A stretch of DNA of 41,484 nt, taken from IMG/VR virus record IMGVR_UViG_3300021399_000034, positions 1-41,484 of that record. One strand, given 5' to 3'. The stretch comes from a virus. Below, in pieces: positions 1 to 41,484 of this stretch (position 1 is its first letter; the number at the start of each line of letters is the position of its first letter). The position numbers and the translations under genes were made by a program. The notes beneath the pieces were generated by a model that worked only from the letters and a program-made list of their open reading frames with translations, was not told the DNA's origin and ran no database searches.

Positions 1-117
1 GTACATGATAGTAATCTACACTCAGAACAGGCAAGCGGTCTGGAACTTCGCGGACATATCGCGGTTCCATGTAACTGGCAATGGGACGGGGATACAGGCG
101 GTGGCAAAAAACGGAGC
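1..117. repeat. Left copy of an exact 117-bp terminal direct repeat (assembly overlap of a circular or permuted genome, or a short DTR)
   Basis: 1-117 read by eye is identical to 41368-41484 (gtacatgatagtaatctacac...ggcaaaaaacggagc). Confidence 0.9.
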
Positions 118-184
118 CGGTGGCGAATCAAAAGAGTCCACCTACATAACGCCAAAGGCTCTGCTGAATCCCGTGGGGCCATAA
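5..184 (+). CDS. Hypothetical small protein (59 aa)
   Basis: ATG at 5, TAA at 182-184, MIVIYTQNRQAVWNF...LLNPVGP. It is one residue below the ORF-track cutoff. Its start lies in the terminal repeat, so on the circle it follows 40761..41348. The SD is weak and G-rich, and no family was recognised. Confidence 0.3.
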   Translation: MIVIYTQNRQAVWNFADISRFHVTGNGTGIQAVAKNGAGGESKESTYITPKALLNPVGP

Positions 185-213
185 AAAACTGCGCGGAAGG
201 CTGTTGTTAGCTA

Positions 214-242
214 TTTACATTACTACTGTATCGTAGTATTAT
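214..242 (+). promoter_or_regulatory. Sigma-70-type promoter P1 for the SNF2/IbrAB island
   Basis: TTTACA (214-219), a 17-nt spacer, then TATTAT (237-242), 34 nt upstream of the ATG at 276. Confidence 0.6.
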
Positions 243-251
243 AGTCGTAGA

Positions 252-263
252 GGGGATATCCCC
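252..263. promoter_or_regulatory. Perfect 12-bp palindrome GGGGATATCCCC (operator or 5'-UTR hairpin)
   Basis: It lies between the -10 box and the SD AAGGAGG (264-270). It is one of only three GGGG-N4-CCCC sites I found in the window, and all three are intergenic. Confidence 0.4.
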
Positions 264-275
264 AAGGAGGTAAAT

Positions 276-1532
276 ATGGCACACTACACAGTCAAATTCG
301 CATGCGGACACACTGCAGAAATTCAGCTTTTCGGGAAAGAGTCCGAAAGGCAAGGAAAAATAAAATATTTGGAAGAAAGCGGGATGTGCCCATCCTGCTA
401 CAAAAAGCAGCAGGAGGAAGCCAAGAAGGCAGCTGAAGCGCAGGCAGCAGCTGAGGCCAGCGAAATGGGGCTTCCGGAGCTGACAGGGTCCGAGAAGCAG
501 GTCGTGTGGGCGACCAAAATAAGAAACGGGCTGATGGAAAGCATCAGCAAGATGCAAGATGCAGCATTTAAGATCATCGAAAACGCTAAGGAAACCGGGA
601 AGCACCAGGATGATCTGCCGAGAGTAGAAAAGGCCATCGAGTTCCTGAATGCCTGCGAGAAGGTTGCCGGAACTGAAACGTCCGCAGCGGCGTTCATTGA
701 CTGGCGGTTTGACCTGGATGTCCGCCGCCTGCTGGCGGTCCGCGAGGCAGAGGACGAGGCCATCAAATCCGGGAAAGATATGCAGCAGTATGGCGGATTT
801 TTCGTAGCAGTTTTAAAAATCCTGTACCCCGCAACCGGTGAAACCGAACAGGCTGTTGAATCCGGCCAGACCGTTGAGATCACCAAGGATGTAACATTGG
901 CGCCGGAAAAGAAAACAACAGACGCCCTGGCAGCAGTTACATACACGGATGACCGCGTTGATGTTTCGTCCCCGAAAGATTACACGGTCATGCAGGCCGT
1001 CAAGGCTGCCGGTTTCCGCTGGACTGGATCGGACTGGGAAATGCGGATCAGCGTAACAACTGGTTCATCAACTGACCGTGCGGCAGAAATTGCAAATAAA
1101 TTGCTGGCGGCCGGTGTGCAGGTTCGTGTCCCTGCGGAGATTCAGAAAGTAGCTGTCGATGGAAATTACACGCCGCGTTGCACGCGGTGGGTTATCAGGC
1201 TTACTAGCGACGCAGAACATGTATATGTGCTCTGGGGGCGCAATGAAAACTGGTATGAAAAAGTAAAATGCATCAGTGGAGCAAAGTGGATGCACGATTT
1301 ACACTATATGTGCATCCCAACATCTTCGGCTGACGAAGTGGAAGATTTCGCGAAGCTCAATGGATTTCAGATCTCTGCAGGAGCTAAATCACTGATAAAT
1401 AATTATAGAGAAAAAGTAAAAATCGTTATTCCGGCAACGGCACCAATAGAAAAAACGCAAAGCGAAGCAAATGGCCTTAAGAATATATTGAATTCTTCCC
1501 GTGATGTAATTGAGGACTTAAAGGATGATTAA
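276..1532 (+). CDS. Zinc-ribbon protein of unknown function (418 aa), first gene of the SNF2/IbrAB operon
   Basis: Long ORF with a strong SD. The N-terminus has CGH...CPSC Cys pairs, followed by an Ala/Glu-rich linker and the motif GSEKQVVWATKIR. No family was recognised. Confidence 0.8.
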   Translation: MAHYTVKFACGHTAEIQLFGKESERQGKIKYLEESGMCPSCYKKQQEEAKKAAEAQAAAEASEMGLPELTGSEKQVVWATKIRNGLMESISKMQDAAFKIIENAKETGKHQDDLPRVEKAIEFLNACEKVAGTETSAAAFIDWRFDLDVRRLLAVREAEDEAIKSGKDMQQYGGFFVAVLKILYPATGETEQAVESGQTVEITKDVTLAPEKKTTDALAAVTYTDDRVDVSSPKDYTVMQAVKAAGFRWTGSDWEMRISVTTGSSTDRAAEIANKLLAAGVQVRVPAEIQKVAVDGNYTPRCTRWVIRLTSDAEHVYVLWGRNENWYEKVKCISGAKWMHDLHYMCIPTSSADEVEDFAKLNGFQISAGAKSLINNYREKVKIVIPATAPIEKTQSEANGLKNILNSSRDVIEDLKDD

Positions 1533-2946
1533 AATGAAAACGCTCACCGCCCTGCTCCCCTATCAGGAGCAGGCGGTTGAAAAACTCAAGCACCTGAAAA
1601 TTGGTGCCCTGTATATGGAAATGGGCACTGGGAAAACAAGAACGGCGCTGGAGCTGATCCGGATTCGCCTGGATGCCGGAAAAATCGACCGTGTCCTGTG
1701 GCTGTGCCCATGCAACATAAAATCCGACATCCGGCGCGGTATCCGGGAGCATTCAAACCTGGACGATATCGGTATTCTGGATATCGTGGGGATTGAAACC
1801 CTGTCAACATCCGTCCGGGAATGCAGCAGGCTTCTGGAACTTGTGGAGAAGCATAACGTTTACCTGATCGTGGATGAATCATCCCTGGTCAAGAATCATG
1901 CTGCCCTGCGCACGATCCATATTCAGCAGCTGGCTGACAGCTGCCAGTACAAGCTAATACTGAACGGCACGCCGATCAGCCGTAATGAGGCTGACTTGTA
2001 CGCTCAGTGGTACATTCTCGACTGGAGGATACTGGGGTACAAATCTTATTACAGCTTTTGTCGCAACCATCTGGAGATTGATGATCGCGGGAGAATCCGA
2101 AGAGTACTAAACACGGATTATCTCGCCGAAAAGGTTGGCCCGTACACCTATCAAATTAAGAAGGCCGATTGTTTCAAGCTTCCCGAAAAAAATCATCACA
2201 CAATATTCTGCGATCTGACTACACAGCAGGATAAAAACTATGACTATGTTTTAGACAAACTGCTTACAAGCCTTGATGAGATGTCAAACACCGCGATATA
2301 TCAGCTGTTTGGAGCATTGCAGGCTGTAGTATCTGGATATGAGATTAAGATTGCTTATTCGGGGTGGCATCCTCATGCAATCCGATGCAAATACATGGAC
2401 AACCCGGAAGATAACCCAAGACTTTCAGCTCTGTTATCATGCCTCGAAGGCAATAATGATAAAACCATAATTTTTTGTCAGTACACTGACGAGATCGAAA
2501 CAACCACACGCCTGATCCGCGCGAGTGGCCGATCCGCAGTGCAATTTTATGGCGAAATGAGCGCGGCCAAGCGGAATGCCGCGATTGACGCATTCCGCGG
2601 TGATACACAGTATTTCGTAGCAAATAAATCCTGTGGAGCCTTCGGGCTGAACCTCCAGTTCTGCCACAAGATTATCTTCTACTCGCATGACTGGGATTGG
2701 GGCACAAGGGCGCAGGCGGAGGATCGTGTACACCGTCTGGGGCAGATTCATGATGTTGATATCACTGATATATGCATGGAAGATTCTATAGATATCCAAA
2801 TTTTGAAATGTCTTGAAAAAAAGGAGAACCTCGCCGATGCGTTTAAACGAGACGTAGCTAATCTTCAAAAATCCGATTTAATAGCTTACTTCCGTGGAAA
2901 AGAGGTGAAAAATGGAAAAGATTTATCAAAAAGAAAATGTGTATGA
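1525..2946 (+). CDS. SNF2/SWI2-family (SF2) DNA-dependent ATPase/helicase
   Basis: Motifs MGTGKTRTA (I), VDESSLVKN (II), LNGTPISRN (III) and QAEDRVHRLGQ (VI). It overlaps the upstream stop. An alternative start at ATG 1534 has better SD spacing. Confidence 0.88.
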   Translation: MIKMKTLTALLPYQEQAVEKLKHLKIGALYMEMGTGKTRTALELIRIRLDAGKIDRVLWLCPCNIKSDIRRGIREHSNLDDIGILDIVGIETLSTSVRECSRLLELVEKHNVYLIVDESSLVKNHAALRTIHIQQLADSCQYKLILNGTPISRNEADLYAQWYILDWRILGYKSYYSFCRNHLEIDDRGRIRRVLNTDYLAEKVGPYTYQIKKADCFKLPEKNHHTIFCDLTTQQDKNYDYVLDKLLTSLDEMSNTAIYQLFGALQAVVSGYEIKIAYSGWHPHAIRCKYMDNPEDNPRLSALLSCLEGNNDKTIIFCQYTDEIETTTRLIRASGRSAVQFYGEMSAAKRNAAIDAFRGDTQYFVANKSCGAFGLNLQFCHKIIFYSHDWDWGTRAQAEDRVHRLGQIHDVDITDICMEDSIDIQILKCLEKKENLADAFKRDVANLQKSDLIAYFRGKEVKNGKDLSKRKCV

Positions 2947-4237
2947 AGCTACGCAAGAAAGGCTGTCATACGTTTTTAGAGAGTTTGAAAACATCGTTAT
3001 CGCGTTCTCCGGTGGTAAAGATTCCGGACTACTCTTCCATCTCGTATTGCAATATATGGACCGGCATGAAGTTCACAAGCGAATTGCTTTACTGCATCAA
3101 GACTTCGAGGCTGAGTACGCGGAAACAGCCAATTATGTTGAAAAGGTATTCTCAGAATCTCCTGAATTTGTAAATAGATATTGGCTATGCTTACCGATGG
3201 CGGTTCGAAATGGGATGTCTACGTATGAACCATACTGGTACCCGTGGCACCCAGATCAGAAAGAAATCTGGGTAAGAAAGATGCCGTATTATCCATATGT
3301 GGTTACAGAGGAGAATGCGCCGTGGTTTACCAGAGGCATGACCGATCCGCAGACGCAGCACGCCTTCGGGATGTGGTATAGGGACAATCACCCCGGGAAA
3401 ACAATCATCCTGTTGGGCCTGCGGGCACAGGAATCGCTACATCGATACAGCGCGATTGCAAATAAACGCCACGCGTATGATGGCAAACAGTGGATCACGA
3501 ATGACGCCAAGAACCTATATTCGGCCTCCCCGATCTATGACTGGGAGACAGAGGATGTATGGACTGCATATGGAAAATTCGGTTTCCCATACAACAAATT
3601 GTATGACCTGTACTACAAGGCCGGGGTGAAGCTGGACGATATGCGTGTCGCGTCGCCGTTTATCGAATTTGCAGCGGATTCACTAAACCTGTATCGGGTG
3701 ATAGAACCTGATACATGGGCACGCGTTGTTGGGCGCGTAAACGGCGCCAATTTCGGTTCAATTTATGGCAGGACAAAGGCAATGGGATATAAACAGATCA
3801 CGCTCCCACCTGGACATACCTGGAAATCCTACACGCTATACCTGTTAAATACCCTACCACCTGATCTGCGTGAACATTATGTGCAAATTTTTCGGACGTC
3901 TGCAAAATTCTGGAGGGACACCGGGGGCGGGTTCTCCGAAGACGTGATCAAAGACATTAAAGACCACGGCTACAATATCCGTAAAAATGGGGTATCGAAT
4001 TTCTCCAAAGATAGCAAACAGCGGATCGTGTTTAACCAGGAAATCCCCGACGACACGGATGATGTGACCAGCACACAGGATATCCCGTCATGGAAACGGA
4101 TGTGCTATTGCATTTTAAAGAATGATTATCTGTGCAGGTTTATGGGATTCGGTCCGACAAAGATCGAGGCGCAGAGGATAAAGGCGATAAAGCAAAAATA
4201 TGCCGCGATTGCGCGGCCAAGGAGGAAATCAAAATGA
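2912..4237 (+). CDS. IbrA-like PAPS-reductase/PP-loop ATP-pyrophosphatase family protein
   Basis: PP-loop AFSGGKDSGLL (SGGKDS encoded at 3008-3025). At 441 aa it has a long C-terminal extension like IbrA. The stop overlaps the next start as ATGA (4234-4237). Confidence 0.8.
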   Translation: MEKIYQKENVYEATQERLSYVFREFENIVIAFSGGKDSGLLFHLVLQYMDRHEVHKRIALLHQDFEAEYAETANYVEKVFSESPEFVNRYWLCLPMAVRNGMSTYEPYWYPWHPDQKEIWVRKMPYYPYVVTEENAPWFTRGMTDPQTQHAFGMWYRDNHPGKTIILLGLRAQESLHRYSAIANKRHAYDGKQWITNDAKNLYSASPIYDWETEDVWTAYGKFGFPYNKLYDLYYKAGVKLDDMRVASPFIEFAADSLNLYRVIEPDTWARVVGRVNGANFGSIYGRTKAMGYKQITLPPGHTWKSYTLYLLNTLPPDLREHYVQIFRTSAKFWRDTGGGFSEDVIKDIKDHGYNIRKNGVSNFSKDSKQRIVFNQEIPDDTDDVTSTQDIPSWKRMCYCILKNDYLCRFMGFGPTKIEAQRIKAIKQKYAAIARPRRKSK

Positions 4238-4779
4238 ACAAATGGCAATCACCTGCATATGGAGTGCTCCCGGTTCCGATCGAGAAGATCAGGGCAAACG
4301 AATACAACCCGAATCACGTCGCACCGCCTGAAATGCGGTTGCTGTATGATAGCATCAAAGAGGATGGCTACACCATGCCGATCGTCTGCTACTACAATGC
4401 AGACGATGACATGTACGAAATCGTGGACGGGTTCCACAGGTATCAGACCATGCTGGACCACAAAGATATCTATGAGCGCGAGCATGGTATGTTGCCTGTG
4501 TCAGTAATCGACAAGCCGATTGACGAGCGGATGGCATCTACTATCCGTCACAACCGCGCCAGGGGATCCCACGATGTAGACCTGATGTCCGGCATCGTAG
4601 CGGAGCTGCACAAAATCGGCCGGTCGGATGCGTGGCTGGCTAAACATCTGGGCATGGACATGGATGAAATTCTGCGGCTGAAACAGCTCACCGGCCTGGC
4701 CGACCTGTACAAGGACAGGGAATTTTCCAAATCGTGGGAACCTGGGGAGGAGGTTACCGATGTTGATATCACTGGCTGA
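4234..4779 (+). CDS. IbrB-like ParB/Srx N-terminal-domain protein
   Basis: Internal ATG with SD AAGGAGGA. Motifs IRANEYNPNHV, IVDGFHRY and IRHNRARG are typical of the ParB-like nuclease/NTPase domain. It is translationally coupled to the IbrA-like gene. Confidence 0.78.
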   Translation: MNKWQSPAYGVLPVPIEKIRANEYNPNHVAPPEMRLLYDSIKEDGYTMPIVCYYNADDDMYEIVDGFHRYQTMLDHKDIYEREHGMLPVSVIDKPIDERMASTIRHNRARGSHDVDLMSGIVAELHKIGRSDAWLAKHLGMDMDEILRLKQLTGLADLYKDREFSKSWEPGEEVTDVDITG

Positions 4780-4945
4780 ATATGCGGAAATCTACGGTCG
4801 CGATCCGGCCACGGTAAGGCAGATGGCGCTGCGCGGCGGGTTTCAAACCGCGCGGAAAATAGGTAGAAATTGGGTAATTGAAGATTCGGAAGAGTATCCG
4901 GATCATAGAAAGAGAGGAGGAAAAAATGCAGATAAGCAGTTATGA
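4760..4945 (+). CDS. Small helix-turn-helix DNA-binding protein (excisionase/MerR-like HTH_17 type)
   Basis: 61 aa, SD GGAGGAGG, sequence ISLAEYAEIYGRDPATVRQMALRGG...GRNWVI. It overlaps the end of the IbrB-like gene. Confidence 0.6.
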   Translation: MLISLAEYAEIYGRDPATVRQMALRGGFQTARKIGRNWVIEDSEEYPDHRKRGGKNADKQL

Positions 4946-5060
4946 GGTTGGCAAAAAATATCCCAGCGCCATTTTGCATCAAGACGAAATAAAATTTGAT
5001 ATCACTGATGGCGGTGCAATCATTCCGAGCATGATTGTCATATTTGATAACAGGAGGTAA
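4926..5060 (+). CDS. Hypothetical small protein (44 aa), possibly a gene fragment
   Basis: ATG at 4926 preceded by a strong SD GAGGAGG, MQISSYEVGKKYPSAILHQDEIKF... The longer ORF-track version from 4878 lacks an SD. Confidence 0.3.
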   Translation: MQISSYEVGKKYPSAILHQDEIKFDITDGGAIIPSMIVIFDNRR

Positions 5061-5069
5061 TAAGAGATA

Positions 5070-5150
5070 ATGGCTAATGAACAGAATTTATTAAAAGGCG
5101 ACGAAGCGCATAAATTTACCCCCGAAGAAGCCTCGAAAGGCAGAAAGTGA
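5070..5150 (+). pseudogene. Truncated 5' remnant of a small-terminase gene (26 codons)
   Basis: MANEQNLLKGDEAHKFTPEEASKGRK* aligns with the N-terminus of the intact terS at 6388 (MAKKEDNLVKGDEAHKLTVEEQSKGGK...). Nucleotide similarity is also visible (aaaggcgacgaagcgcataaa versus aaaggcgatgaagcacataaa). Confidence 0.7.
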
Positions 5151-5160
5151 GACATAGCAA

Positions 5161-6387
5161 ATGGATAATATCAAGATAGAATATTTGCCCATAAAGGATT
5201 TAAAACCATACGAGCGTAACGCAAAGAAGCATGACGAAACACAGATTAAAAATGTGATGGAGTCAATTAAACAGTTCGGATTCGCACAACCATTGGTAGT
5301 TGATAAAGATAATGTTTTGATTATCGGTCATTGCAGATTAATCGCAAGTAAAAGATTGAAATTGAAAGAAGTTCCTGTTGTCCGTATGGATGAATTAACG
5401 CAGGAGCAGGTCGATAAATTAAGATTACTTGACAATAAGCTCAATGAAAGCGAATGGGATTTTGATTTACTTGCAGAAGATATTCCAACGCTTGATTTTA
5501 GCGATTTTGATATTGATTGGGGATTGTCCGAAGATATAGAAGAAAACACAGAAATCGAGGAAGATGAAGCGCCCGAACCACCAACAGAGCCAAAGGCAAA
5601 ATTAGGCGATTTGTATATGTTGGGAAATTCCCACCGCCTTATTTGTGGAGATTCTACGGATGTTGCGGTTATTGATAGGCTTATGGATGGGGTAAAGGCT
5701 AAACTACTTCTGACAGACCCACCGTATGGTATAAGTGTTGTATCTATTGACAAGAAGGTTGGTGGTGATAAACCATTTGGCAGTAAAGGCAAGGTTGGCT
5801 ATGGTCAAAAAGGGAAAAATAAAATACTTGATTGTAACGAATACGCTCCGATTATAGGGGATGATACAACCGATACAGCAAGAGCAAATTATGATGTCGC
5901 TTTGACTTGCACAGAAAATCAGATTATATTCGGCGGAAATTATTTCACAGACTTTTTGCCGCCGTCAAGGTGTTGGATTGTTTGGGATAAACAGAACACA
6001 GGAAATTTTGCTGATGCAGAATTGGCGTGGACTTCTTTTGATAAAGGTGTGAGGTTATATCATTTCTTGTGGAATGGCTTATGCCGTGAGGGTAGCAGAG
6101 AAGTAGAGGGTAAAACAAGAGTACATCCGACACAAAAGCCTGTCGGTATGCTTGCAGACATACTGAAGGATTTTTCAGAAGAAAACGACAGCGTTCTTGA
6201 TTGTTTCGGCGGTAGTGGTAGCACACTAATAGCCTGTGAGCAGTTAAACAGAAAATGCTATATGTGCGAAATTTCCCCACAATATATTGACGTAATCATT
6301 CAGCGTTACATAAATCTAAAAGGAACAGATAAAGACGTATTTTTGATAAGGGATGGACAGAAAATCCCCTACAATGAGGTTGAATAA
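5161..6387 (+). CDS. ParB-like N-terminal domain fused to a beta-class N6-adenine (or N4-cytosine) DNA methyltransferase
   Basis: The N-terminus has KPYERNAKKH and IIGHCRL (ParB-like). Motif IV is LLLTDPPYGI, followed by motif I LDCFGGSGST. An acidic linker lies between the domains. Confidence 0.88.
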   Translation: MDNIKIEYLPIKDLKPYERNAKKHDETQIKNVMESIKQFGFAQPLVVDKDNVLIIGHCRLIASKRLKLKEVPVVRMDELTQEQVDKLRLLDNKLNESEWDFDLLAEDIPTLDFSDFDIDWGLSEDIEENTEIEEDEAPEPPTEPKAKLGDLYMLGNSHRLICGDSTDVAVIDRLMDGVKAKLLLTDPPYGISVVSIDKKVGGDKPFGSKGKVGYGQKGKNKILDCNEYAPIIGDDTTDTARANYDVALTCTENQIIFGGNYFTDFLPPSRCWIVWDKQNTGNFADAELAWTSFDKGVRLYHFLWNGLCREGSREVEGKTRVHPTQKPVGMLADILKDFSEENDSVLDCFGGSGSTLIACEQLNRKCYMCEISPQYIDVIIQRYINLKGTDKDVFLIRDGQKIPYNEVE

Positions 6388-6741
6388 ATGGCAAAGAAAG
6401 AAGATAACCTTGTAAAAGGCGATGAAGCACATAAACTAACAGTCGAAGAACAGTCGAAAGGTGGAAAGGCATCAGCAGAAGCAAGGCGCAAGAAAAGAGA
6501 TTTACGTGAAGCCTTAGAAATGCTCTTAGAAAAGGATTTTAAAGATAAAAACGGCAATATATTAAGCGGTACAGAGGTAATCACAGCAAAGCTATTTGAA
6601 AAGGCATCAAAAGGCGATGTAAGAGCGTTTGAAACAATCAGAAGTACAGTAGGGCAAGACCCAGTGCAGAAAGTAATGATCGCAGAAGTAGACCAAAGCG
6701 TTATTGATGAGGTTGAAAGTGCTGTTTTGGGCGATGAATAA
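6388..6741 (+). CDS. terS: Terminase small subunit (putative)
   Basis: 117 aa, immediately upstream of terL. It has a basic KGGKASAEARRKKR motif. The start abuts the methylase stop (TAAATG). Confidence 0.6.
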   Translation: MAKKEDNLVKGDEAHKLTVEEQSKGGKASAEARRKKRDLREALEMLLEKDFKDKNGNILSGTEVITAKLFEKASKGDVRAFETIRSTVGQDPVQKVMIAEVDQSVIDEVESAVLGDE

Positions 6742-6777
6742 AGCAATGATTTATATTCTATTCCGAGGAAAGTTTAC

Positions 6778-8061
6778 ATGAATAGAAAACAGGCGATAGA
6801 TTTTCTGATAAATAATCCCGTCAAGTATGCACACATGTTGGGATTCACGAAGCTGATAGAGTTTCACAACGTTTGGATAAAACAAATGATTCAAAGCAAG
6901 GACGATAAGACGTTACAGGGCAGTCGCGGAATTTTCAAAACTACCTGTGTATCGGTTGCCCTTGCCTTGATTATTATATTGCTACCGAACAAAAGAACAT
7001 TGTTTATGCGTAAAACGGATAATGACATAAAAGAAGTCATAAAGCAGGTACAGAAGATTCTGCAAGACCCGCACACGCTATATTTTGTTCAATGTATTTA
7101 CGGCGTTAATCTGAAACTAACAGTACAATCCGCAACAGAGATAAGCACCAATTTAACAACGGATATAAAAGGAACATCACAGCTTGTTGGAATGGGTTGC
7201 GGCGCTTCATTAACAGGTAAGCACTTCGATTATATATTCACGGACGATATTGTTAATGTAAAAGACCGAGTAAGTAAAGCCGAAAGAGATGCAACAAAGC
7301 TGATTTATCAAGAGCTACAGAACATCAAGAACCGTGGCGGAAGAATATTTAATACAGGCACGCCGTGGCACCGCGACGATGCATTTTCAATTATGCCACC
7401 TGCTGAAAAATGGGATTGCTACAGGCCAGAGGTGAAACAGATAATATCTGATGAGGAATTAGCGGATATTAAATCTAAGATGCTACCGTCATTGTTTGCG
7501 GCTAACTATGAATTGCGACACATAGCAAGTGAAGATGTAATCTTTACAGACCCGATAACAGGCGGCAATCCTGCAATGTGTGAGCAAGGTTTAGCACATG
7601 TCGATGCGGCGTTTGGTGGTGAGGATTACACGGCATTTACGATTATGCGATATTACGACAAGAAGTATTATGTTCTTGGGAAGCTATGGAGAAAGCATGT
7701 AGAAGATTGCTATTCCAATATTTTTGACCTTTATAACAAACATTTGTGTGGTAAACTGTACACAGAAAAGAATGCCGATAAAGGTATGGTTGCAAGGGAC
7801 TTAAAGCGCATTGGCATCAGGGCAGTGCCTTATAACGAAAGCATGAATAAGCACATCAAGATTTCGACATATCTAAAGGTGATTTGGGCAAACGTGATTT
7901 TTGTCGAAGGTACTGATCCTGAGTACATAGAGCAGATTTTAGATTATACAGAAGATGCAGAACATGATGATGCTCCAGACAGCGCATCCGTTCTTGCAAG
8001 ACTGCTTTACAGGAAAACAGGTATCAAAGAAAAAGGCTACGCAGATTTTTTGGAGGGATAA
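6778..8061 (+). CDS. terL: Terminase large subunit
   Basis: Walker A-like GSRGIFKTT, Walker B IFTDDIV, NTGTPWH, and a nuclease-domain motif HVDAAFGGEDYTAF. It lies before the portal gene. Confidence 0.88.
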   Translation: MNRKQAIDFLINNPVKYAHMLGFTKLIEFHNVWIKQMIQSKDDKTLQGSRGIFKTTCVSVALALIIILLPNKRTLFMRKTDNDIKEVIKQVQKILQDPHTLYFVQCIYGVNLKLTVQSATEISTNLTTDIKGTSQLVGMGCGASLTGKHFDYIFTDDIVNVKDRVSKAERDATKLIYQELQNIKNRGGRIFNTGTPWHRDDAFSIMPPAEKWDCYRPEVKQIISDEELADIKSKMLPSLFAANYELRHIASEDVIFTDPITGGNPAMCEQGLAHVDAAFGGEDYTAFTIMRYYDKKYYVLGKLWRKHVEDCYSNIFDLYNKHLCGKLYTEKNADKGMVARDLKRIGIRAVPYNESMNKHIKISTYLKVIWANVIFVEGTDPEYIEQILDYTEDAEHDDAPDSASVLARLLYRKTGIKEKGYADFLEG

Positions 8062-8064
8062 AGA

Positions 8065-9513
8065 ATGCTGACATATCAAGACCTGCTTGCAATAGGAGAA
8101 AGCGACAAGGCAAAAATGGATTTCGTGCGCTCTGCTATTTTCAAGCATCAATCTACTGACCTCTACAGAAACGCAGTAATCGCTGATAAGTATGATAAAA
8201 AGCAGAACGTCACGATCATGGATTATCAGAAACTGCTTTACAAGGTCACTGGAGAAGCCGTTCCGGATAACTTCAGTGCAAACTACAAGATAGCATCAAA
8301 TTTCTTCTTCAGATTCGTTACGCAGGAAAGCCAGTATCTTTTAGGGAATGGCATAATGCTTGATGAGGATGAACTGAAAGACAGGCTCGGCAAGGACTTT
8401 GACGCAAGACTGCAGGAAGTAGGCAGGGATGCGCTTGTGGATGGAGTAGCTTTCGGATTCTGGAATAAAGACCACATGGAAGTGTTTCGGATCACAGAGC
8501 TTGTGCCACTCTATGACGAAGAGAATGGTGCGCTGATGGCGGCTATTCGCTTCTGGCAGATAGACCAGTCCAAGCCGTTAAGGGCAACGCTCTATGAGCC
8601 AGATGGATATACGGAGTACATCTGGAGGAAGAAAGACGATGGGGAGATATTAAAGCCGAAGCGTCAGTATATTCTCAAGACACGTTCTACGCCTCTTGAA
8701 GGCATGGAGATTTATGACTATGAGAATTATCCTACATTTCCGATCGTGCCTCTGTGGGGCAATACTGCGCATCAGAGCGAGCTCGTAGGAATCCGAGAGG
8801 CTATAGATGCGTATGATCTCATTAAGTCTGGATTCTGCAATACTGTAGATGAAGCAAGCCTTGTCTATTGGACAATCCAGAATGCAGGAGGCATGGATGA
8901 TATCGACCTTGCTAAGTTTGTAGAGAGAATCAGAACGCTCCATGCCGCCACAGTAGAGGATGATGGAGCAAAGGCAGAATCTCATACGCTTGATGTTCCG
9001 TATCAGAGCAGAGAAGCTTTACTCATGAGATTGCGCTCAGACTTGTACGATGATTTTATGGCTCTGGATACAAAAGAGATTGCAGGAGGTGCTACCACAG
9101 CCACGCAGATCAAGGCGGCTTATGAGCCTATTAACAGCAAGGCTGATATGTTTGAATACTGTGTCCATGATTTTCTGGATGGAATCTTTTTACTTGCGGG
9201 AATCGAAAGTGATGCCACATTCACACGCTCGATTATTGTAAACTCGCAGGAGGAAATCACGACAGTTATTTCAGCCGCCACATATCTCAGTTCAGAATAT
9301 GTCACTCGGAAGATCCTCATGCTTCTTGGAGATGGGGATAAGATTGATGATGTTCTAAAAGAAATGGATGAAGGCGAGGCAGAGATCTATCAGGACGAAG
9401 AAGATGAAGAAATGGAAGGAGAAGAAGATACTGGTCTTGATGATGAAGAAGATGAAGATGACGACATAGACGCTCAGCTTGATGCTCTGCTGAAAGAATT
9501 GGAGGACATGTAA
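8065..9513 (+). CDS. Portal protein (SPP1 gp6-like)
   Basis: 482 aa, follows terL, with a very acidic C-terminal tail (EDEEMEGEEDTGLDDEEDEDDD). Confidence 0.8.
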   Translation: MLTYQDLLAIGESDKAKMDFVRSAIFKHQSTDLYRNAVIADKYDKKQNVTIMDYQKLLYKVTGEAVPDNFSANYKIASNFFFRFVTQESQYLLGNGIMLDEDELKDRLGKDFDARLQEVGRDALVDGVAFGFWNKDHMEVFRITELVPLYDEENGALMAAIRFWQIDQSKPLRATLYEPDGYTEYIWRKKDDGEILKPKRQYILKTRSTPLEGMEIYDYENYPTFPIVPLWGNTAHQSELVGIREAIDAYDLIKSGFCNTVDEASLVYWTIQNAGGMDDIDLAKFVERIRTLHAATVEDDGAKAESHTLDVPYQSREALLMRLRSDLYDDFMALDTKEIAGGATTATQIKAAYEPINSKADMFEYCVHDFLDGIFLLAGIESDATFTRSIIVNSQEEITTVISAATYLSSEYVTRKILMLLGDGDKIDDVLKEMDEGEAEIYQDEEDEEMEGEEDTGLDDEEDEDDDIDAQLDALLKELEDM

Positions 9514-9944
9514 TGGCATACGCAAGCAAATATTATGATCCGGTAAAGCGACATGAGTATTACATGAAGCATAGAAAGCTAAAGGGAAAGAAAAGCAGAA
9601 CGTCTACTGCAGGTCTTAATGAAGATGGTAAGATTGCCGCTAAAGAAGTAAAAGAAGCAATTATGGCAGAGAAGAAAGCGTATCTTGAGAAGCAAAAAGG
9701 GATTATGAATAATCAGATTAAGTCCCTGCGTGAGAAGCTGAAAGCGATGTCTAAAGAAGAACGTAAGAAAAACAAAGAAAAGATACAGGAACAAATCAAA
9801 GGGTTACGTGCTTTATACAAGGATCACAAAGCCAAAGTCAAAGATTTTTACAACGAGAAATATGCGCAGGAATTAGACAAGATTAAAGCAGACAAGAGTA
9901 TGCTAAGGGCATATAAATCGAAGAAGAAAAAGAAGTCCTCATGA
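9513..9944 (+). CDS. Lys-rich coiled-coil protein, unknown function
   Basis: 143 aa. It is coupled to its neighbours at both ends (TAATG with the portal gene upstream; a 4-nt ATGA overlap with the next gene at 9941-9944) and lies between the portal and Mu-F-like genes. Confidence 0.6.
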   Translation: MAYASKYYDPVKRHEYYMKHRKLKGKKSRTSTAGLNEDGKIAAKEVKEAIMAEKKAYLEKQKGIMNNQIKSLREKLKAMSKEERKKNKEKIQEQIKGLRALYKDHKAKVKDFYNEKYAQELDKIKADKSMLRAYKSKKKKKSS

Positions 9945-11002
9945 GTAAATTCAGAAAAGGAAAATTAAAGTTATCTAAAGAAGAGCTTGAAGCATACGAG
10001 AGCATGTGCAAAGACATGGAAAAGAGGATTGCGAAAGAGTATGCGCAGGCAAAAAAGGAAGTCGCTGATAAAGCAGACGATTATTTCAGACGCTTTAAAA
10101 AGAAAGACGCTGTTTGGAGACAGTGGGTAGCATCAGGACAAAAAACCAAAAAGGAGTATCAAAAATGGCGGACTAATCAGATGGCAGTGGGCGAGAGATG
10201 GAAAGACATGCGTGATGTACTCGCTACCGATCTTGCGAACAGCGATAAGATTGCCGCCAGTATTATGAATGAGTATATTCCTGAGGCTTATGCCCTTGGT
10301 CACAATTGGGGCACTTACGAAGTCGAAGCAGATGCTAAAATCAACACCGGATACACGCTTTATAATCGTGAAGCGGTAGAGAAATTGATCAAAGAAGAAC
10401 CTAGTCTTCTGCCAAAAGCGAAAGTCAGCATTCCGAAAGATAAACTGTGGAACAGACAGCACTTAGACTCTGCTATTACGCAGGGCATTCTGCAGGGAGA
10501 AAGCATTCCTGATATTGCGAAGCGTCTTCAGTCCGTGACAGATATGAACCATAAGGCGGCACTCAGGAATGCCCGTACCATGACAGGATCCGCAGAAAAC
10601 GCAGGTCACATGAATGCTTATAAACGTGCTGAAGATATGGGGATTGAACTTGAGAAACAGTGGGTTGCTACGTTTGACAACAGGACACGAACTTCTCATA
10701 GAAATTTGCATGGAGAAACGCAGGAAATAAACACTCTGTTTTCAAATGGGCTGATGTATCCGAAGGATCCTAATGGACCGTCTGAAGAAGTGTATAACTG
10801 CAGATGCAGAGTTATCAGCAATGTGAAAGGATTTCAGCGTGATCTTTCCCCGATGTATGACGAAAATCTTATGGGAATGACATTTGAGGAATGGAAAGAC
10901 GCAAAGCCTGTTTACCAGAAGATCACTCATGGAGAGGAAGTCGCTGAAGCACAGAAGATGAGATATGTAAGGGAGTACAGGAATGGCAATCGGAAACGTT
11001 AA
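9941..11002 (+). CDS. Head morphogenesis / minor capsid protein (Mu F / SPP1 gp7 family)
   Basis: Signature VATFDNRTRTSHRNLHGE ... YNCRCRV. Confidence 0.85.
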   Translation: MSKFRKGKLKLSKEELEAYESMCKDMEKRIAKEYAQAKKEVADKADDYFRRFKKKDAVWRQWVASGQKTKKEYQKWRTNQMAVGERWKDMRDVLATDLANSDKIAASIMNEYIPEAYALGHNWGTYEVEADAKINTGYTLYNREAVEKLIKEEPSLLPKAKVSIPKDKLWNRQHLDSAITQGILQGESIPDIAKRLQSVTDMNHKAALRNARTMTGSAENAGHMNAYKRAEDMGIELEKQWVATFDNRTRTSHRNLHGETQEINTLFSNGLMYPKDPNGPSEEVYNCRCRVISNVKGFQRDLSPMYDENLMGMTFEEWKDAKPVYQKITHGEEVAEAQKMRYVREYRNGNRKR

Positions 11003-11441: not shown

Positions 11442-11527
11442 TGTAGGATAAAGGTACATTTTAGTAAAGTCCCTATAGAGCAAAAAATATATAGAAAGTT
11501 TAGTAAAATGTACGATTATCCTACACT
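11442..11527 (+). repeat. Inverted-repeat element, copy 1 (86 bp)
   Basis: The left arm TGTAGGATAAAGGTACATTT (11442-11461) is identical to 30757-30776. The right arm AAAATGTACGATTATCCTACACT (11505-11527) differs at one base from 30821-30843. The two arms are imperfect reverse complements of each other. Confidence 0.85.
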
Positions 11528-11571
11528 GCTTTTGTCTGACAATTTTAGTGACAGATTTTTTTTAAATGCCG

Positions 11572-30744: not shown

Positions 30745-30843
30745 GTGTAGGATAAGTGTAGGATAAAGGTACATTTATATAAAATGTCTATAGAAAAAAT
30801 AGTCCTATAGGGATTTTATGAAAATGCACGATTATCCTACACT
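30745..30843 (+). repeat. Inverted-repeat element, copy 2 (87-bp core plus an extra tandem GTGTAGGATAA)
   Basis: GTGTAGGATAA occurs twice in tandem (30745-30755 and 30756-30766). The left arm 30757-30776 is identical to 11442-11461. The right arm 30821-30843 matches 11505-11527 at 22 of 23 bases. Confidence 0.85.
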
Positions 30844-30890
30844 CTTTTTATAAGCCGTTGAAATTCTTTCAAAATAATTTAAAAAATATA

Positions 30891-33669: not shown

Positions 33670-34032
33670 ATGAACAACAAAAAGTTAGGGACAGCGTTTG
33701 AGCGGGAGATGGTGAAGATTCTATCAGAGAATGGATACTGGGTACACTTCATCAGTCCAGACAACAGAGGCGCACAGCCTTTTGACATCATAGCAGTTAA
33801 GAATGGAATTGCTCTGGCGGCAGACTGCAAGACCTGTGAAGATCATATCTTTAGAATCAGCAGACTTGAATGGAATCAGAGGCTTGCTTTCCAGAAGTGG
33901 ATTGACTGTGGAAATGTGATGCCAGTTATTTTCGTGAAATATCATCATAATGAGAAAATTTGCATGATTGATTATGACAGGCTCGTGAAAGACGAAAAGG
34001 TGGATTTGAATGAAATTTCTGGTTGGCAATAA
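33670..34032 (+). CDS. Holliday-junction resolvase (Hjc-like PD-(D/E)XK)
   Basis: GTAFEREMVKIL...GAQPFDIIAVKNG...AADCKT. I prefer ATG 33670 over the GTG at 33664. Confidence 0.65.
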   Translation: MNNKKLGTAFEREMVKILSENGYWVHFISPDNRGAQPFDIIAVKNGIALAADCKTCEDHIFRISRLEWNQRLAFQKWIDCGNVMPVIFVKYHHNEKICMIDYDRLVKDEKVDLNEISGWQ

Positions 34033-35389
34033 AATCATTGCGAAGGGAGTTACAAGAGAACTTCATAATTGGTGCATGGACAATCTGGTGCTGTTCAATC
34101 CAGACTACGCCAAGAAAGAGCGCATGGGTCTGTGGACTGGTAGCACTCCAAGGAATATCTTTCTCTATGAGAAGAATGGCTCAGACTTGATTCTTCCGTT
34201 CGGATGTATAGCGCAGTTAAGGTCAAGGTTCCCAGATGCCCAATTTATGGCTCAGAATCGCCCCAGAATCGCTTTTAACTATCGTTCCCATATTTCTCTA
34301 TACCCATACCAAGAGAACGCAGTCTTGAAGGCGCTAGAGGGCAAAAATGGCATACTCGTCATGCCGTGCGGAGCAGGAAAGACGCAGACAGGTCTGGAAG
34401 TGGTTGCCAGAATAGGCGGCAGGGCGTTATGGCTGACCCATACGCAGGACTTACTGAATCAGAGCATGAACAGGGCGAAGTCAGTATTCGGATGTCCTTT
34501 GAGCAGTTACGGAACGATCACTAACGGTAAGGTGAATATTGGAGAGGGAATCACATTCGCCACAGTGCAGACTATGAGTAAGCTTGACCTTACTGAATAC
34601 AAAGATTTTTGGGATGTGGTAATTGTGGATGAATGTCACAGAGCCATTGGATCACCTACGAAGGTGATGCAGTTTTACAAGGTGCTTTCTAACTTGTCAT
34701 GCAGATACAAGTTCGGTTTGACAGCCACACCGAAAAGAGCAGATGGTCTTGAGAAAGCGATGTTTGCTTTGATAGGTGATGTACTCTGTGAGGTATCTAA
34801 AAAAGAGGTCGCCAATACAACGTGTCCTGTTGTGGTCATAACTATGGAGACTGGGTACAAGCCGAATACAGACATGGCTCTTGCGGGAGATGGAACGATT
34901 AACTACGCGGGGCTTGTGAATGATCTTACTCATGACGAGAAGCGAATGAAGGTCGTATCGGAAGTGCTGAATCATAACTGCAATGCGGCTACGCTTGTGC
35001 TTTCGAACAGGGTAGAATATCTCAGACTGTTGCAAAGAGAGTATCAGCGTGATTCAGTGTGCTTATCTATGCTTGGGAACAGCAAAGCCGCAAAGGCAGA
35101 ACGGAAAGAGGCTCTTAGAAAGTTGAATGATGGAGAGATAAGTTGTGTCTTTGCTACGTATGCCTTGGCTCGTGAAGGACTCGATGTGCCAAACTTGCGA
35201 TATGTAGTATTTGCTACGCCAGAGAAAGACCCTACAACTATTCAACAGGCATCTGGGAGAGTCGGCAGGAAAGCAGATGGAAAAGAGTTTGGGACGGTCA
35301 TAGATTTCGTAGATGATTTTGGTATGTATTATGGTTGGGCAAGCAAGCGCCAGAAGACATATCGAAAACTTGGATACGATTTATGTTGA
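34010..35389 (+). CDS. DEAD/DEAH-box SF2 helicase
   Basis: Walker A MPCGAGKTQT, motif II VIVDECH, TATP, and a helicase-C region with QQASGRVGR. Confidence 0.85.
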   Translation: MKFLVGNKIIAKGVTRELHNWCMDNLVLFNPDYAKKERMGLWTGSTPRNIFLYEKNGSDLILPFGCIAQLRSRFPDAQFMAQNRPRIAFNYRSHISLYPYQENAVLKALEGKNGILVMPCGAGKTQTGLEVVARIGGRALWLTHTQDLLNQSMNRAKSVFGCPLSSYGTITNGKVNIGEGITFATVQTMSKLDLTEYKDFWDVVIVDECHRAIGSPTKVMQFYKVLSNLSCRYKFGLTATPKRADGLEKAMFALIGDVLCEVSKKEVANTTCPVVVITMETGYKPNTDMALAGDGTINYAGLVNDLTHDEKRMKVVSEVLNHNCNAATLVLSNRVEYLRLLQREYQRDSVCLSMLGNSKAAKAERKEALRKLNDGEISCVFATYALAREGLDVPNLRYVVFATPEKDPTTIQQASGRVGRKADGKEFGTVIDFVDDFGMYYGWASKRQKTYRKLGYDLC

Positions 35390-35818: not shown

Positions 35819-36072
35819 GAACATTCCAAATAAGTATACCGTTTATATGCATATTACTCCAAGTAACAAACGATATATTGTGATAACTTGTCAGGATGTC
35901 CAACAAAGATGTATCGATGATGGACAAGTATTTGAGAGCATGACTGCGGCAGGAAAAGAGTATGGAATCAATAAAACGCTAATATGCAGGGGCTTGCAGT
36001 GGAAGGAATAAAACTGCAAAAGGATTGCGTTTTGAATATGTAAACAAGGAGGAAAGTAAAGAAAATGTATGA
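35802..36072 (+). pseudogene. Decayed free-standing GIY-YIG/NUMOD-type homing endonuclease
   Basis: The N-terminus YTVYMHITPSNKRYIVIT has the GIY-X10-YIG pattern. The catalytic core is missing. A NUMOD-like FESMTAAGKEYGINKTLI follows. The expected C-terminus ACSGRNKTAKGLRFEYV is readable only in the +1 frame (35983-36072). Confidence 0.6.
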
Positions 36073-39172: not shown

Positions 39173-39304
39173 GGGAACTGTAAATATCACGTCCACGACG
39201 GCAACGGCGACGGGATGTGCGTAAACGCAGACAGCGATGCGTGCGCAGATTGGACGTTTGAAAGCGATATTTGCGGAAATTGGGCAGAAAAAGGAGATAA
39301 ATGA
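39166..39304 (+). pseudogene. Possible frameshifted small Cys/Asp-rich gene
   Basis: ATG 39166 stops after 5 codons. Removing one G from GGG (39173-39175) would give MVRNCKYHVHDGNGDGMCVNADSDACADWTFESDICGNWAEKGDK*. That TGA (39302-39304) overlaps the ATG of the next gene. The longest intact ATG ORF is 39215..39304 (29 aa). Confidence 0.3.
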
Positions 39305-39939
39305 AAGTTTTAGTGGCATGTGAAGAGTCACAGCGCGTCTGCTGTGCTTTCCGCGCAAAAGGGCATGAAGCATACTCCTGCGATATTCAAGAGCCGTCCG
39401 GCGGGCATCCTGAATGGCACATTCTCGGAGATGTGCTTAAGGCTATTAGGGGGGGGCAAGTCGTGACGATGGACGGTTTAACGCATGACGTTGGCAAGTG
39501 GGACTTGCTTATTGCACACCCGCCCTGCACATACCTGTCGAACGCTGGCGCACGATTCCTTTACCCGAAAGGCGTTCTAAACGAACAGCGGTTGCGTAAA
39601 GGGCTTATGGCAAAGGATTTCTTTCTGCACCTCTTGTGGGCTGATATTCCGAAGATTGCGGTTGAGAATCCGATTCCATCATCCGTTTACTGCTTGCCAA
39701 AATACACGCAGATCATTCAGCCGTACCAGTTCGGGCATCCGTTCAAAAAGAAAACGTGCCTTTGGCTGAAAGGTTTGCCAGAGCTTGAACCAACCGATGA
39801 AATTCCGCTTGAGCAATGCGAAAGCACGAAGATTGCCGGAAATTGGTTCAATCATGGCGGTAAAGACCGACAAGCGAACCGGGCAAAAACTTTTCCAGGC
39901 ATTGCAAAAGCAATGGCGGAACAGTGGGGAGGAATATGA
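39301..39939 (+). CDS. DNA (cytosine-5) methyltransferase-like protein (short form)
   Basis: 212 aa. MKVLVACEESQ..., motif IV-like LIAHPPCTYLS, motif VI-like AVENPIPS. It contains a G8 tract at 39449-39456. Confidence 0.55.
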   Translation: MKVLVACEESQRVCCAFRAKGHEAYSCDIQEPSGGHPEWHILGDVLKAIRGGQVVTMDGLTHDVGKWDLLIAHPPCTYLSNAGARFLYPKGVLNEQRLRKGLMAKDFFLHLLWADIPKIAVENPIPSSVYCLPKYTQIIQPYQFGHPFKKKTCLWLKGLPELEPTDEIPLEQCESTKIAGNWFNHGGKDRQANRAKTFPGIAKAMAEQWGGI

Positions 39940-41367: not shown

Positions 41368-41484
41368 GTACATGATAGTAATCTACACTCAGAACAGGCA
41401 AGCGGTCTGGAACTTCGCGGACATATCGCGGTTCCATGTAACTGGCAATGGGACGGGGATACAGGCGGTGGCAAAAAACGGAGC
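41368..41484. repeat. Right copy of the exact 117-bp terminal direct repeat
   Basis: Identical to 1-117. It contains the duplicated start (ATG 41372) of ORF 5..184. Confidence 0.9.

Follow-up and report, generated by a model that had tools for sequence, protein, structure and literature searches.

What does a phage do with a run of overlapping genes that encodes a SNF2-family motor, an IbrA-type PP-loop enzyme and an IbrB-type ParB-like protein? The question is raised by the first 5 kb of IMG/VR virus record IMGVR_UViG_3300021399_000034, the whole of which (41,484 nucleotides; hereafter the window) was analysed. The run (positions 276–4945) contains five genes: one for a protein that we call X, followed by those for SNF2, IbrA, IbrB and a small helix-turn-helix (HTH) protein. 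We conclude (i) that these five genes are the functional unit, (ii) that they very probably form one DNA-directed module and (iii) that the reading to be preferred, at a probability of about 40%, is that of a machine driven by nucleoside triphosphates (NTPs) which installs a covalent DNA modification that is neither a methyl nor a sulfur mark. Coordinates are those of the window, all features lie on the + strand, as does every long open reading frame (ORF) of the genome, and loci used for comparison carry L numbers.

Organization of the cassette

The first gene, an ORF of 418 codons for X (276–1532), is followed by genes for a minimal SNF2-family ATPase/translocase of 473 amino acids (1525–2946; Pfam and PHROG matches), an IbrA-type PP-loop enzyme of 441 amino acids with PAPS_reduct and DUF3440 domains (2912–4237; Pfam and PHROG), an IbrB-type protein of the ParB/Srx fold with 181 amino acids (4234–4779; PHROG) and an HTH_17/excisionase-like protein of 61 amino acids (4760–4945; weak Pfam match). 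Successive genes overlap by 8 nt (1525/1532), by 35 nt (2912/2946), within an ATGA that holds the IbrB start codon (4234–4237) and by 20 nt (4760/4779), and ribosome-binding sites of the AGGAGG, GGAGG or GAGG type are present at all five. An initial annotation, made from the letters of this stretch, had listed these ORFs, the four overlaps and a set of protein motifs; all of them were found in place when the ORF list and the junctions were read again. It had also proposed that one promoter (214–242) drives the genes. The string itself is there, a sigma-70-like candidate (TTTACA–17 nt–TATTAT; 10/12 consensus matches) that lies ahead of X in a gap of 91 nt, the sole upstream intergenic one. However, promoter-grade consensus matches are not enriched in positions 1–7000 (16 found versus 13.3 ± 3.9 expected from shuffles), and for this reason a promoter function of the candidate is only plausible.

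The cassette contains a 29-nt repeat with 79% identity between its copies (2739–2767 and 4746–4774). Its 17-nt exact core, ATGTTGATATCACTG, contains an EcoRV site, and the repeat encodes ‘DVDIT’ near the SNF2 C-terminus and at the IbrB C-terminus/start of the HTH gene. It probably arose by chance.

IbrA: a PP-loop enzyme without a conserved cysteine

The IbrA protein scores well above the cut-offs of both of its Pfam domains (PF01507 PAPS_reduct, 48 bits versus 22.5; PF11922 DUF3440, 266 bits versus 25, E = 1.5e-79) and belongs to phrog_2302 (6e-102). Its PP-loop, SGGKDS (3008–3025), is invariant among IbrAs of 23–78% identity, together with D64/E66, a G-x-R-x-x-E-S-x-x-R loop and P207-x-x-D-W (D210–W211). 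When an AlphaFold2 (AF2) model (predicted local distance difference test score, pLDDT, 81) was compared by Foldseek, the N-terminal ~240 amino acids matched CysH, the PAPS domain of FAD synthase (FMN adenylyltransferase) and CysD (1e-6 to 1e-5). Judged from the alignment and the model, IbrA is most likely active, either as an ATP-pyrophosphatase or as an adenylyltransferase. The family is large: of 8000 candidates scored, 6514 or more clusters reach E ≤ 1e-5, and 225 of 50,697 phage records contain it.

No cysteine is invariant or near-invariant among 13 diverse IbrAs. CysH-type reduction of phosphoadenosine phosphosulfate (PAPS) uses a catalytic C-terminal cysteine. Because IbrA has no conserved one, both true PAPS reduction and DndC-like phosphorothioation appear unlikely for this enzyme. 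Scores against dedicated models are low: 29.2 bits versus a cut-off of 290.4 for the DndC model TIGR03183, and 29 versus 154 (PRK02090) and 20 versus 165 (TIGR00434) for the cysH models. PADLOC gave only weak DndC and BrxP matches for IbrA (BrxP, 18 bits) and no match to DndA, DndD or DndE among the cassette proteins. The analogy that had been drawn with DndC- and QueC-type sulfur chemistry is thus not upheld, given the missing cysteine and DndC and BrxP scores far below cut-offs.

IbrB and the small HTH protein

IbrB belongs to phrog_2159 (9e-78), whereas its Pfam ParB_N score (23.2 bits) falls under the gathering cut-off of 26.3. It carries the motifs IVDGFHRY (4420–4443) and IRHNRARG (4543–4566); among 100 IbrB homologues, DGFHR and TIRHNRARGxH are at least 92–100% conserved, and the single cysteine of IbrB is not. 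A conserved C-terminal segment is probably HTH-like, as judged by eye. Searches of IbrA and IbrB against PDB sequences returned only generic ParB/Spo0J matches, and PADLOC no match for IbrB. The 61-amino acid protein matches Pfam HTH_17 at 4.7e-5, under the cut-off, and weakly matches small-terminase and excisionase PHROGs; its homologues come after IbrB in L004, L008, L009, L011, L016, L017, L132 and L149.

The SNF2 motor

Both lobes of a SNF2-family enzyme are present in the second protein (PF00176 SNF2-rel_dom, 2.7e-13, 50 bits; PF00271 Helicase_C, 3e-16, 60 bits; both above cut-offs), as are motifs I, II and VI; the sequence reads GTGKT at 1624–1638, DESS at 1873–1884 and QAEDRVHRLGQ at 2713–2745, and the gene belongs to phrog_62 (9e-99). 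It is 32% identical (8e-54) to the product of the gene upstream of IbrA in Streptococcus thermophilus phage CHPC877. The NCBIfam models of ZorD, DrmD, DpdE and BrxH, with cut-offs of 500–1500 bits, gave only 30–46 bits, and the PADLOC matches (Zorya, DISARM, Dpd and BREX) extend only over generic SNF2 regions, the models being much longer, with no partner genes found.

X carries a module homologous to two anti-CRISPR proteins

No match to X was found in Pfam, NCBIfam or PADLOC, and full-length relatives amount to ~50 clusters (5.8e9 proteins searched). The initial annotation could name no family for it. X can now be assigned in part: its AF2 model (pLDDT 84.7) starts with a β-hairpin Zn-ribbon, continues through a long stretch of helices into two α/β domains in tandem and ends in an acidic tail. 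The Zn-ribbon (C10, H12 … C38-x2-C41; 303–398) has C10, C38 and C41 invariant in 30 homologues, and its first knuckle is CxxC in some of them. The tail (SSRDVIEDLKDD; 1485–1529) is kept in most homologues and would be a partner-docking element.

The helical module (residues 65–146; 468–713), predicted to bind single-stranded DNA (ssDNA), contains LTGSEKQxxWAxxIR and WIDxR. A profile of 30 X homologues searched against PDB sequences found AcrIF23 (E = 3.7e-4) and AcrIE7 (0.017–0.029), with two motifs, LTGSEKQxxWAxxIR and WIDNR, colinear between these proteins and X. In the reciprocal direction, the AcrIF23 segment was used as a phmmer query against the 13,815 six-frame ORFs of all loci, and its 55 matches were all of the X family (best E = 4.8e-7). 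K6 and R49 of AcrIE7 are required for ssDNA binding (PMC12002350); the first, the Lys of GSEKQ, aligns with X K74, which is invariant, and the second, the Arg of IDNR, with X R144, which is at least 90% conserved. The Cas2/3-binding loop of AcrIF23 (residues 17–28; PMC9270243) lies outside the segment common to X. The similarity, ~80 residues long, likely reflects a generic ssDNA-binding module. X thus resembles AcrIE7/AcrIF23 over residues ~57–146, with colinear GSEKQxxWA … IDNR and the same ssDNA-binding Lys and Arg, but differs in its length of 418 amino acids, in its Zn-ribbon and two further domains and in being tied to SNF2 as an obligate partner.

The Zn-ribbon and the helical KQ/IDNR module together (X residues 1–160; 276–755) also occur as a large stand-alone family of 3068 representative clusters, the proteins being mostly of 130–180 amino acids among the best 150 listed. 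Genes of this kind (loci L142–L185, many phyla) are without SNF2/IbrAB linkage in 26 of 28 genome loci. AcrIF23 and AcrIE7 appear to be the sole characterised relatives of this family.

The two tandem α/β domains (residues 205–365; 888–1370) were delimited from AF2 secondary structure and classed as SNF2-accessory with the help of a gene fusion in L033. There, a 662-amino acid ORF (8016–10004) joins the C-terminal half of X (profile positions 179–367) to SNF2 (residues 215–658), and IbrA and IbrB come next; this is a Rosetta-stone argument for physical cooperation of the two proteins. Foldseek gave no match at E ≤ 1e-3 for the whole X model against PDB; local fold matches to the N-terminal domain of XPB (XPB-DRD; probability 0.84–0.87) and to phage helicase domains are weak leads. 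Overall, X would serve the SNF2 motor as an accessory subunit that binds ssDNA.

The cassette recurs as a unit across phages and prophages

Conservation of the gene order was surveyed in two sets. The first comprised the 80 IMG/VR loci closest to this IbrA, 61 of which could be assessed for an upstream SNF2. IbrA and IbrB are adjacent in 77/80; SNF2 is directly upstream of the pair in 19/61 and X is present in 8. For the second, 185,579 species genomes were searched with an X profile, yielding 40 full-length X genes, 31 of them with enough downstream sequence. X is followed by SNF2, IbrA and IbrB in 30 of these 31, in at least nine phyla; the hosts belong to Bacillota, Nitrospirota, Patescibacteria, Dependentiae, Bacteroidota, Desulfobacterota, Synergistota and Alpha-/Beta-/Gammaproteobacteria. 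Two Streptomyces loci, counted separately, have a 713–716-amino acid protein with only the N-terminal X module, then SNF2, IbrA and IbrB. Because the flanks of genome X-cassettes are enriched in endolysin amidases and integrases (Amidase_2, 6; Phage_integrase, 5), these cassettes are mostly in prophages.

Among named phages, the order SNF2–IbrA–IbrB recurs in those of Streptococcus, Lactobacillus, Clostridium and Flavobacterium. Clostridium scindens phage phiCs5676-1 has the full X–SNF2–IbrA–IbrB, in which X shows 28% identity along the entire protein (5e-47), and Flavobacterium phage FCL-2 has SNF2–IbrB–IbrA between TerL and portal. The genes upstream of IbrA/IbrB in CHPC877 and Lactobacillus phage AQ113 are annotated ‘hypothetical’; that of AQ113 was called SNF2 by a seed-trained profile. 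The proposal that SNF2, IbrA and IbrB act as one unit is therefore borne out, by the order in 30/31 X loci, by the X–SNF2 fusion and by a replication helicase that is separate from the cassette (see below); the suggested check of whether this neighbourhood is conserved in phages came out in its favour, with 19/61 IMG/VR loci and phages of both Firmicutes and Bacteroidota.

The cassette is a mobile accessory module, and its position varies between lineages: before TerS/TerL in the window, between lysis genes and integrase in L003, L004 and L006, between TerL and portal in L007 and FCL-2, and elsewhere among replication genes. The 112 downstream neighbours of IbrAB in the 80 viral loci include three GpA terminases and two portals, with helicases, DnaB, NinG and integrases as common, which rules out that IbrAB always lies beside a terminase. 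The place of the cassette before the packaging genes, taken earlier as a clue to the protection of progeny DNA, is accordingly not a general feature, which weakens it as a guide to function. In mycobacteriophage Phlyer (L024, 1–5236), the genes are, in order, those for a ParB-like gp1, two small proteins, IbrA, IbrB and, with overlapping starts, the large terminase; no small terminase is annotated in this stretch, which raises the question of a packaging role for ParB-like proteins there.

Amino-methyltransferases are recruited repeatedly

The gene that follows the cassette (5161–6387) encodes a β-class amino-methyltransferase of 408 amino acids fused to ParB_N (N6_N4_Mtase, 5e-22; phrog_498, 2e-95). 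Both domains are above their cut-offs (PF01555, 79 bits; PF02195, 32 bits) and, as in β-class N6A/N4C enzymes, DPPY (5716–5727) comes before FxGxG (within FGGSGST, 6205–6225), with ParB_N at the N-terminus. It is a standard member of the phage ParB_N-fused amino-methyltransferases of phrog_498.

The initial annotation had extended the coupled run through this gene. Coupling does reach 4945; the methyltransferase ATG at 5161, however, follows a 215-nt gap that contains two gene remnants. The first (4878–5060, TTG start) corresponds to 60 of the ~175–190 amino acids of an accessory gene, ‘V’ (profile of 18 V homologues, E = 7e-9), which has no Pfam family and comes after IbrB/HTH in ~16 other cassettes; the remnant overlaps the HTH gene by 68 nt, the same overlap as in L004. 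The second (5071–5151) is a truncated 26-codon duplicate, with its own AGGAGG, of positions 6388–6468, the start of gene 6388–6741, and was recognised by a 72-nt direct repeat (74% identity with 6397–6468); it is a recombination scar and marks the methyltransferase as an insertion. The methyltransferase gene, which abuts the downstream TerS-like gene at 6387/6388, has a G+C content of 38.8% (cassette, 48.6%; rest of the genome, 44.3%) and is absent beside the cassette in the closest relatives. Because of the scars, the difference in G+C content and the absence in relatives, it is an independent DNA-modifying gene, separately acquired and outside the coupled cassette, and was rejected as a cassette member.

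Other methyltransferases lie near other cassettes. A sister group (L006, L114, L117–L120, L126 and others) has the order X–SNF2–Y–IbrA(short)–IbrB–Z, where Y (~290 amino acids; L006 12626–13510) has no Pfam match and Z (~210 amino acids; L006 15177–15809), found in eight loci, has DPPW and FxGxG-like motifs; matches of Z to N6_N4_Mtase are marginal, with one above cut-off. The ParB-methyltransferase adjoins IbrAB here and in L063, and in a Bacillus phage a DNA adenine methyltransferase abuts IbrA. Amino-methyltransferases have thus been recruited repeatedly and independently, in three forms (ParB-methyltransferase, Z and that of Bacillus phages), which argues for DNA as the substrate of the cassette. 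In the genome-locus flanks (L108–L167, n = 34), an S-adenosylmethionine synthetase gene was seen near the cassette in two and N6_N4 methyltransferases in two.

Comparison with known systems

The closest known counterparts of the core pair are IbrA/IbrB of E. coli (ECOR-9 IbrAB island) and YbdN/YbdM, their paralogues in the core genome, in which a PAPS_reduct+DUF3440 enzyme likewise stands beside a ParB-like protein of ~180 amino acids with DGFHR/RHNRARG. RefSeq labels ybdN ‘phosphoadenosine phosphosulfate reductase’ and ybdM ‘IbrB-like domain-containing protein’. An enterobacterial IbrA/IbrB locus with 33% identity matches ybdN/ybdM at the DNA level (75% identity), and of 5426 complete E. coli genomes 5421 contain this match (for example NZ_CP053258.1, 1590719–1592603); some genomes have up to five copies of IbrA/IbrB homologues, and 83 places are on plasmids. 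The window differs by adding coupled SNF2, X and HTH genes, no such partner being found among the annotated genes under the ybdNM matches; a search for SNF2 at the E. coli ibrAB island proper yielded ybdNM entries only.

ParB-like partners of PP-loop or base-exchange enzymes are known from systems that modify DNA, DndC/DndB and DpdA/DpdB (PMC10853773, PMC12839542). Like the cassette, DndBCDE pairs an ATP pyrophosphatase of the PAPS-reductase clade, with a PP-loop, with a ParB/Srx-fold protein carrying DG-x-HR, and acts on DNA; DndC, however, has an Fe–S (4Fe–4S) cluster, a Cys dyad and a persulfide relay (PMC10853773), whereas IbrA has no conserved cysteines and DndA, DndD and DndE are absent from the cassette proteins. 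The partner ATPase also differs, being SNF2 here and an SMC-like ABC ATPase in Dnd. IbrB DGFHR resembles DGQHR, the corresponding motif in DndB. In the Dpd system, the tRNA-guanine transglycosylase (TGT) DpdA depends on a ParB-like NTPase, DpdB, and SNF2-type helicases are found in the cluster (PMC12839542). The cassette SNF2 matches PADLOC DpdE models at 1e-22, in generic SNF2 regions and far under the NCBIfam cut-off, but the cassette has no TGT/DpdA or preQ0 pathway and its enzyme would adenylate where DpdA exchanges a base. Type 4 BREX also combines a PAPS-reductase-like enzyme, BrxP, and a superfamily 2 (SF2) helicase in a DNA-directed system; the cassette is without PglZ, BrxC and BrxL, and BrxP has DUF4007 and a Cys-rich region rather than DUF3440.

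A possible mechanism

That DNA is the substrate, as proposed earlier, is strengthened by the AcrIE7-like ssDNA module of X, by the ParB/Srx core (DGFHR/RHNRARG) that IbrB retains and by the recurrent, independent association with amino-methyltransferases. In the covalent-modification reading, IbrB, through a ParB/Srx NTP-binding core and a probable HTH, would bind DNA or clamp it, as would the small HTH protein; the minimal SNF2 ATPase would translocate on the duplex, and X, docked on SNF2 via its tandem α/β domains, would hold transiently exposed ssDNA in its AcrIE7-like module. The PP-loop of IbrA would split ATP into AMP and pyrophosphate and adenylate a DNA group (the carbonyl of a base, or a phosphate in the backbone or at a terminus), after which a non-sulfur nucleophile would displace AMP and leave a covalent mark that is neither methyl nor phosphorothioate. 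Phage DNA might thereby be shielded from host nucleases, or the choice of proteins that bind it might be altered. A benefit in the lytic cycle is favoured by the finding of no integrase in this genome and by phage FCL-2, which is reported to have neither an integrase nor detectable lysogeny (PMC4541368).

Several points weigh against this reading. The only experimental phenotype of IbrAB, reported by Sandt et al. (2002), is reportedly the activation of prophage eib genes, from which the family has its name and which is not a biochemical function. No nucleophile-supplying or donor enzyme is encoded in the cassette. DUF3440 had no structural match when the AF2 model was searched by Foldseek. As far as the alignment can tell, IbrA has no conserved cysteine, and this excludes the DNA chemistry that is best understood for enzymes of its clade. 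Pairs without SNF2 and X make up 42 of the 61 assessable viral loci, hence IbrAB functions independently of both. The ybdNM genes of E. coli form an operon on the chromosome rather than a phage pair and are under repression by YbdO/CitR (PMC9068703), YbdM has been called ‘completely uncharacterized’ (PMC8764527), and our literature search (IbrA/IbrB, DUF3440, YbdN/YbdM and PAPS-reductase+ParB+SNF2) found no mechanistic study. A more specific claim, that SNF2 and X feed DNA to a cysteine-less IbrA and IbrB in a new kind of ATP-driven DNA-modification or anti-defence machine and that the covalent mark is itself new, is less probable.

Alternative explanations

The alternative that survives best, although we regard it as unlikely, is a remodeller that acts against defence or silencing without covalent chemistry. 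SNF2 and X would track along phage DNA and strip off or block host complexes, for example R-loops of type I CRISPR with Cas3, restriction enzymes that translocate, or silencers of the H-NS kind; IbrB would act like the ParB-family anti-silencer VirB, and IbrA would perform a regulatory nucleotide reaction that leaves no mark on DNA. SNF2 enzymes are protein–DNA remodellers, and the activation of silent prophage genes, said to be the historical IbrAB phenotype, would fit. The homology of the X module to two anti-CRISPRs acting at the Cas3/ssDNA step points the same way, as do the many small phage and prophage proteins of the 3068-cluster stand-alone family and the presence of the cassette in moron positions. 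However, a purely steric model does not explain why the universal core is IbrA plus IbrB with an invariant catalytic PP-loop, the recurrent methyltransferase partners suggest covalent chemistry, and the shared Acr segment is short and likely generic.

A prophage-borne defence or superinfection-exclusion system, comparable to Dnd, Dpd or BREX, would use SNF2 and a ParB-like nuclease against incoming DNA while IbrA marks self; this we consider improbable. Genomic X-cassettes do lie between lysis genes and integrase, the usual site of prophage defence morons, and SNF2 resembles ZorD, DpdE, DrmD and BrxH, albeit through generic SNF2 regions only. Yet PADLOC gave no match for IbrB or X and weak DndC/BrxP matches for IbrA, no dedicated nuclease is encoded, and the module is kept in phages without signs of lysogeny (FCL-2 according to its authors; in this genome, no integrase found), here co-directional with late and packaging genes.

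Less credible still is a regulator of late genes or packaging, in which IbrB and the HTH protein would bind phage DNA near the terminase genes for late activation or recognition of a packaging site. It would explain the name ‘co-activator of prophage gene expression’ and is favoured by the weak matches of the HTH protein to small-terminase and excisionase PHROGs, the location of IbrA/IbrB upstream of or inside packaging modules in Phlyer, FCL-2, L007 and the window, and the order IbrB–IbrA–TerL(GpA) in L081, L094 and L102. Against this stand the few GpA terminases (3) and portals (2) among the 112 downstream neighbours, the genomic X-cassettes that adjoin lysis genes and integrases, and the ATP-pyrophosphatase and SNF2 motor, which are unexpected in a transcription factor. 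Finally, an ordinary auxiliary metabolic gene, that is, a true PAPS reductase for sulfur assimilation with an unrelated helicase neighbour, is suggested by the PHROG category (‘moron, auxiliary metabolic gene’) and by the many records that name the product ‘phosphoadenosine phosphosulfate reductase’, but is extremely improbable in view of the absence of a conserved and hence of a CysH-type catalytic cysteine, of cysH/PAPS-reductase NCBIfam scores of 20–29 bits against cut-offs of 154–165, of the obligate ParB-like partner and of the tight linkage to SNF2 and X.

Genome context

The two 117-nt ends of the window are identical (1–117 = 41368–41484); it is therefore a complete phage genome of 41,367 bp, terminally redundant or circular. 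PHROG scans of ~30 genome proteins found no integrase or repressor. Megablast of 25 kb of the genome against the 50,697 phage records gave no match, and blastn only short, distant ones. The packaging module starts with a DUF5681/phrog_2412 protein, possibly the small terminase (6388–6741; profile matches), followed by TerL (6778–8061; phrog_38, 1.5e-69). A recombination and replication module at 31.5–38.3 kb encodes an exonuclease, a Sak4-like protein, SSB, an SF2 helicase (34010–35389; phrog_16) and a primase-polymerase (36065–38347; phrog_1829), and a second DNA methyltransferase lies at 39301–39939 (phrog_757). The phage thus has two methyltransferases and two SF2-type motors, of which the helicase-like SNF2 of the cassette is encoded apart from the replication module. 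That SNF2 is the replication helicase was ruled out, both by the phage's own SF2 helicase and primase module at 34–38 kb and by the way SNF2 travels with IbrAB into non-replication positions.

An element of ~90 bp is present in two copies (11442–11533 and 30755–30849), in the two largest AT-rich intergenic regions. Each copy is an inverted repeat of 36–39 nt with an 11–12-nt spacer; these palindromes may be operators, terminators or ParB-type sites. Near the cassette no repeated parS-like sites were found.

Implications

The phage IbrA/IbrB pair is already known at the level of annotation. As far as the literature was searched, new elements are the four-to-five-gene cassette with SNF2 and X, the X–SNF2 fusion, the cysteine-less IbrA, the homology of X to AcrIE7/AcrIF23 including the ssDNA-binding residues, and the scars of methyltransferase insertion. 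The cassette is a richer version of IbrA/IbrB, in a compact 4.7 kb, to which a DNA motor, a predicted ssDNA-binding subunit and sometimes a methyltransferase are added, and this narrows the substrate of the pair to DNA. Its X module links the ‘orphan-fold’ proteins AcrIE7 and AcrIF23 to ~3,000 clusters of small phage proteins and suggests for them a general ssDNA-binding origin. If a new modification were found, it would matter for phage–host arms races, for how phage DNA behaves in sequencing and restriction, and for annotation, where IbrA/IbrB genes now carry wrong labels, either ‘partition proteins’ or auxiliary genes of sulfur metabolism. If the reading of a new kind of machine is right, working it out would also tell what thousands of IbrA/IbrB pairs do, among them ybdN/ybdM of the E. 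coli core genome.

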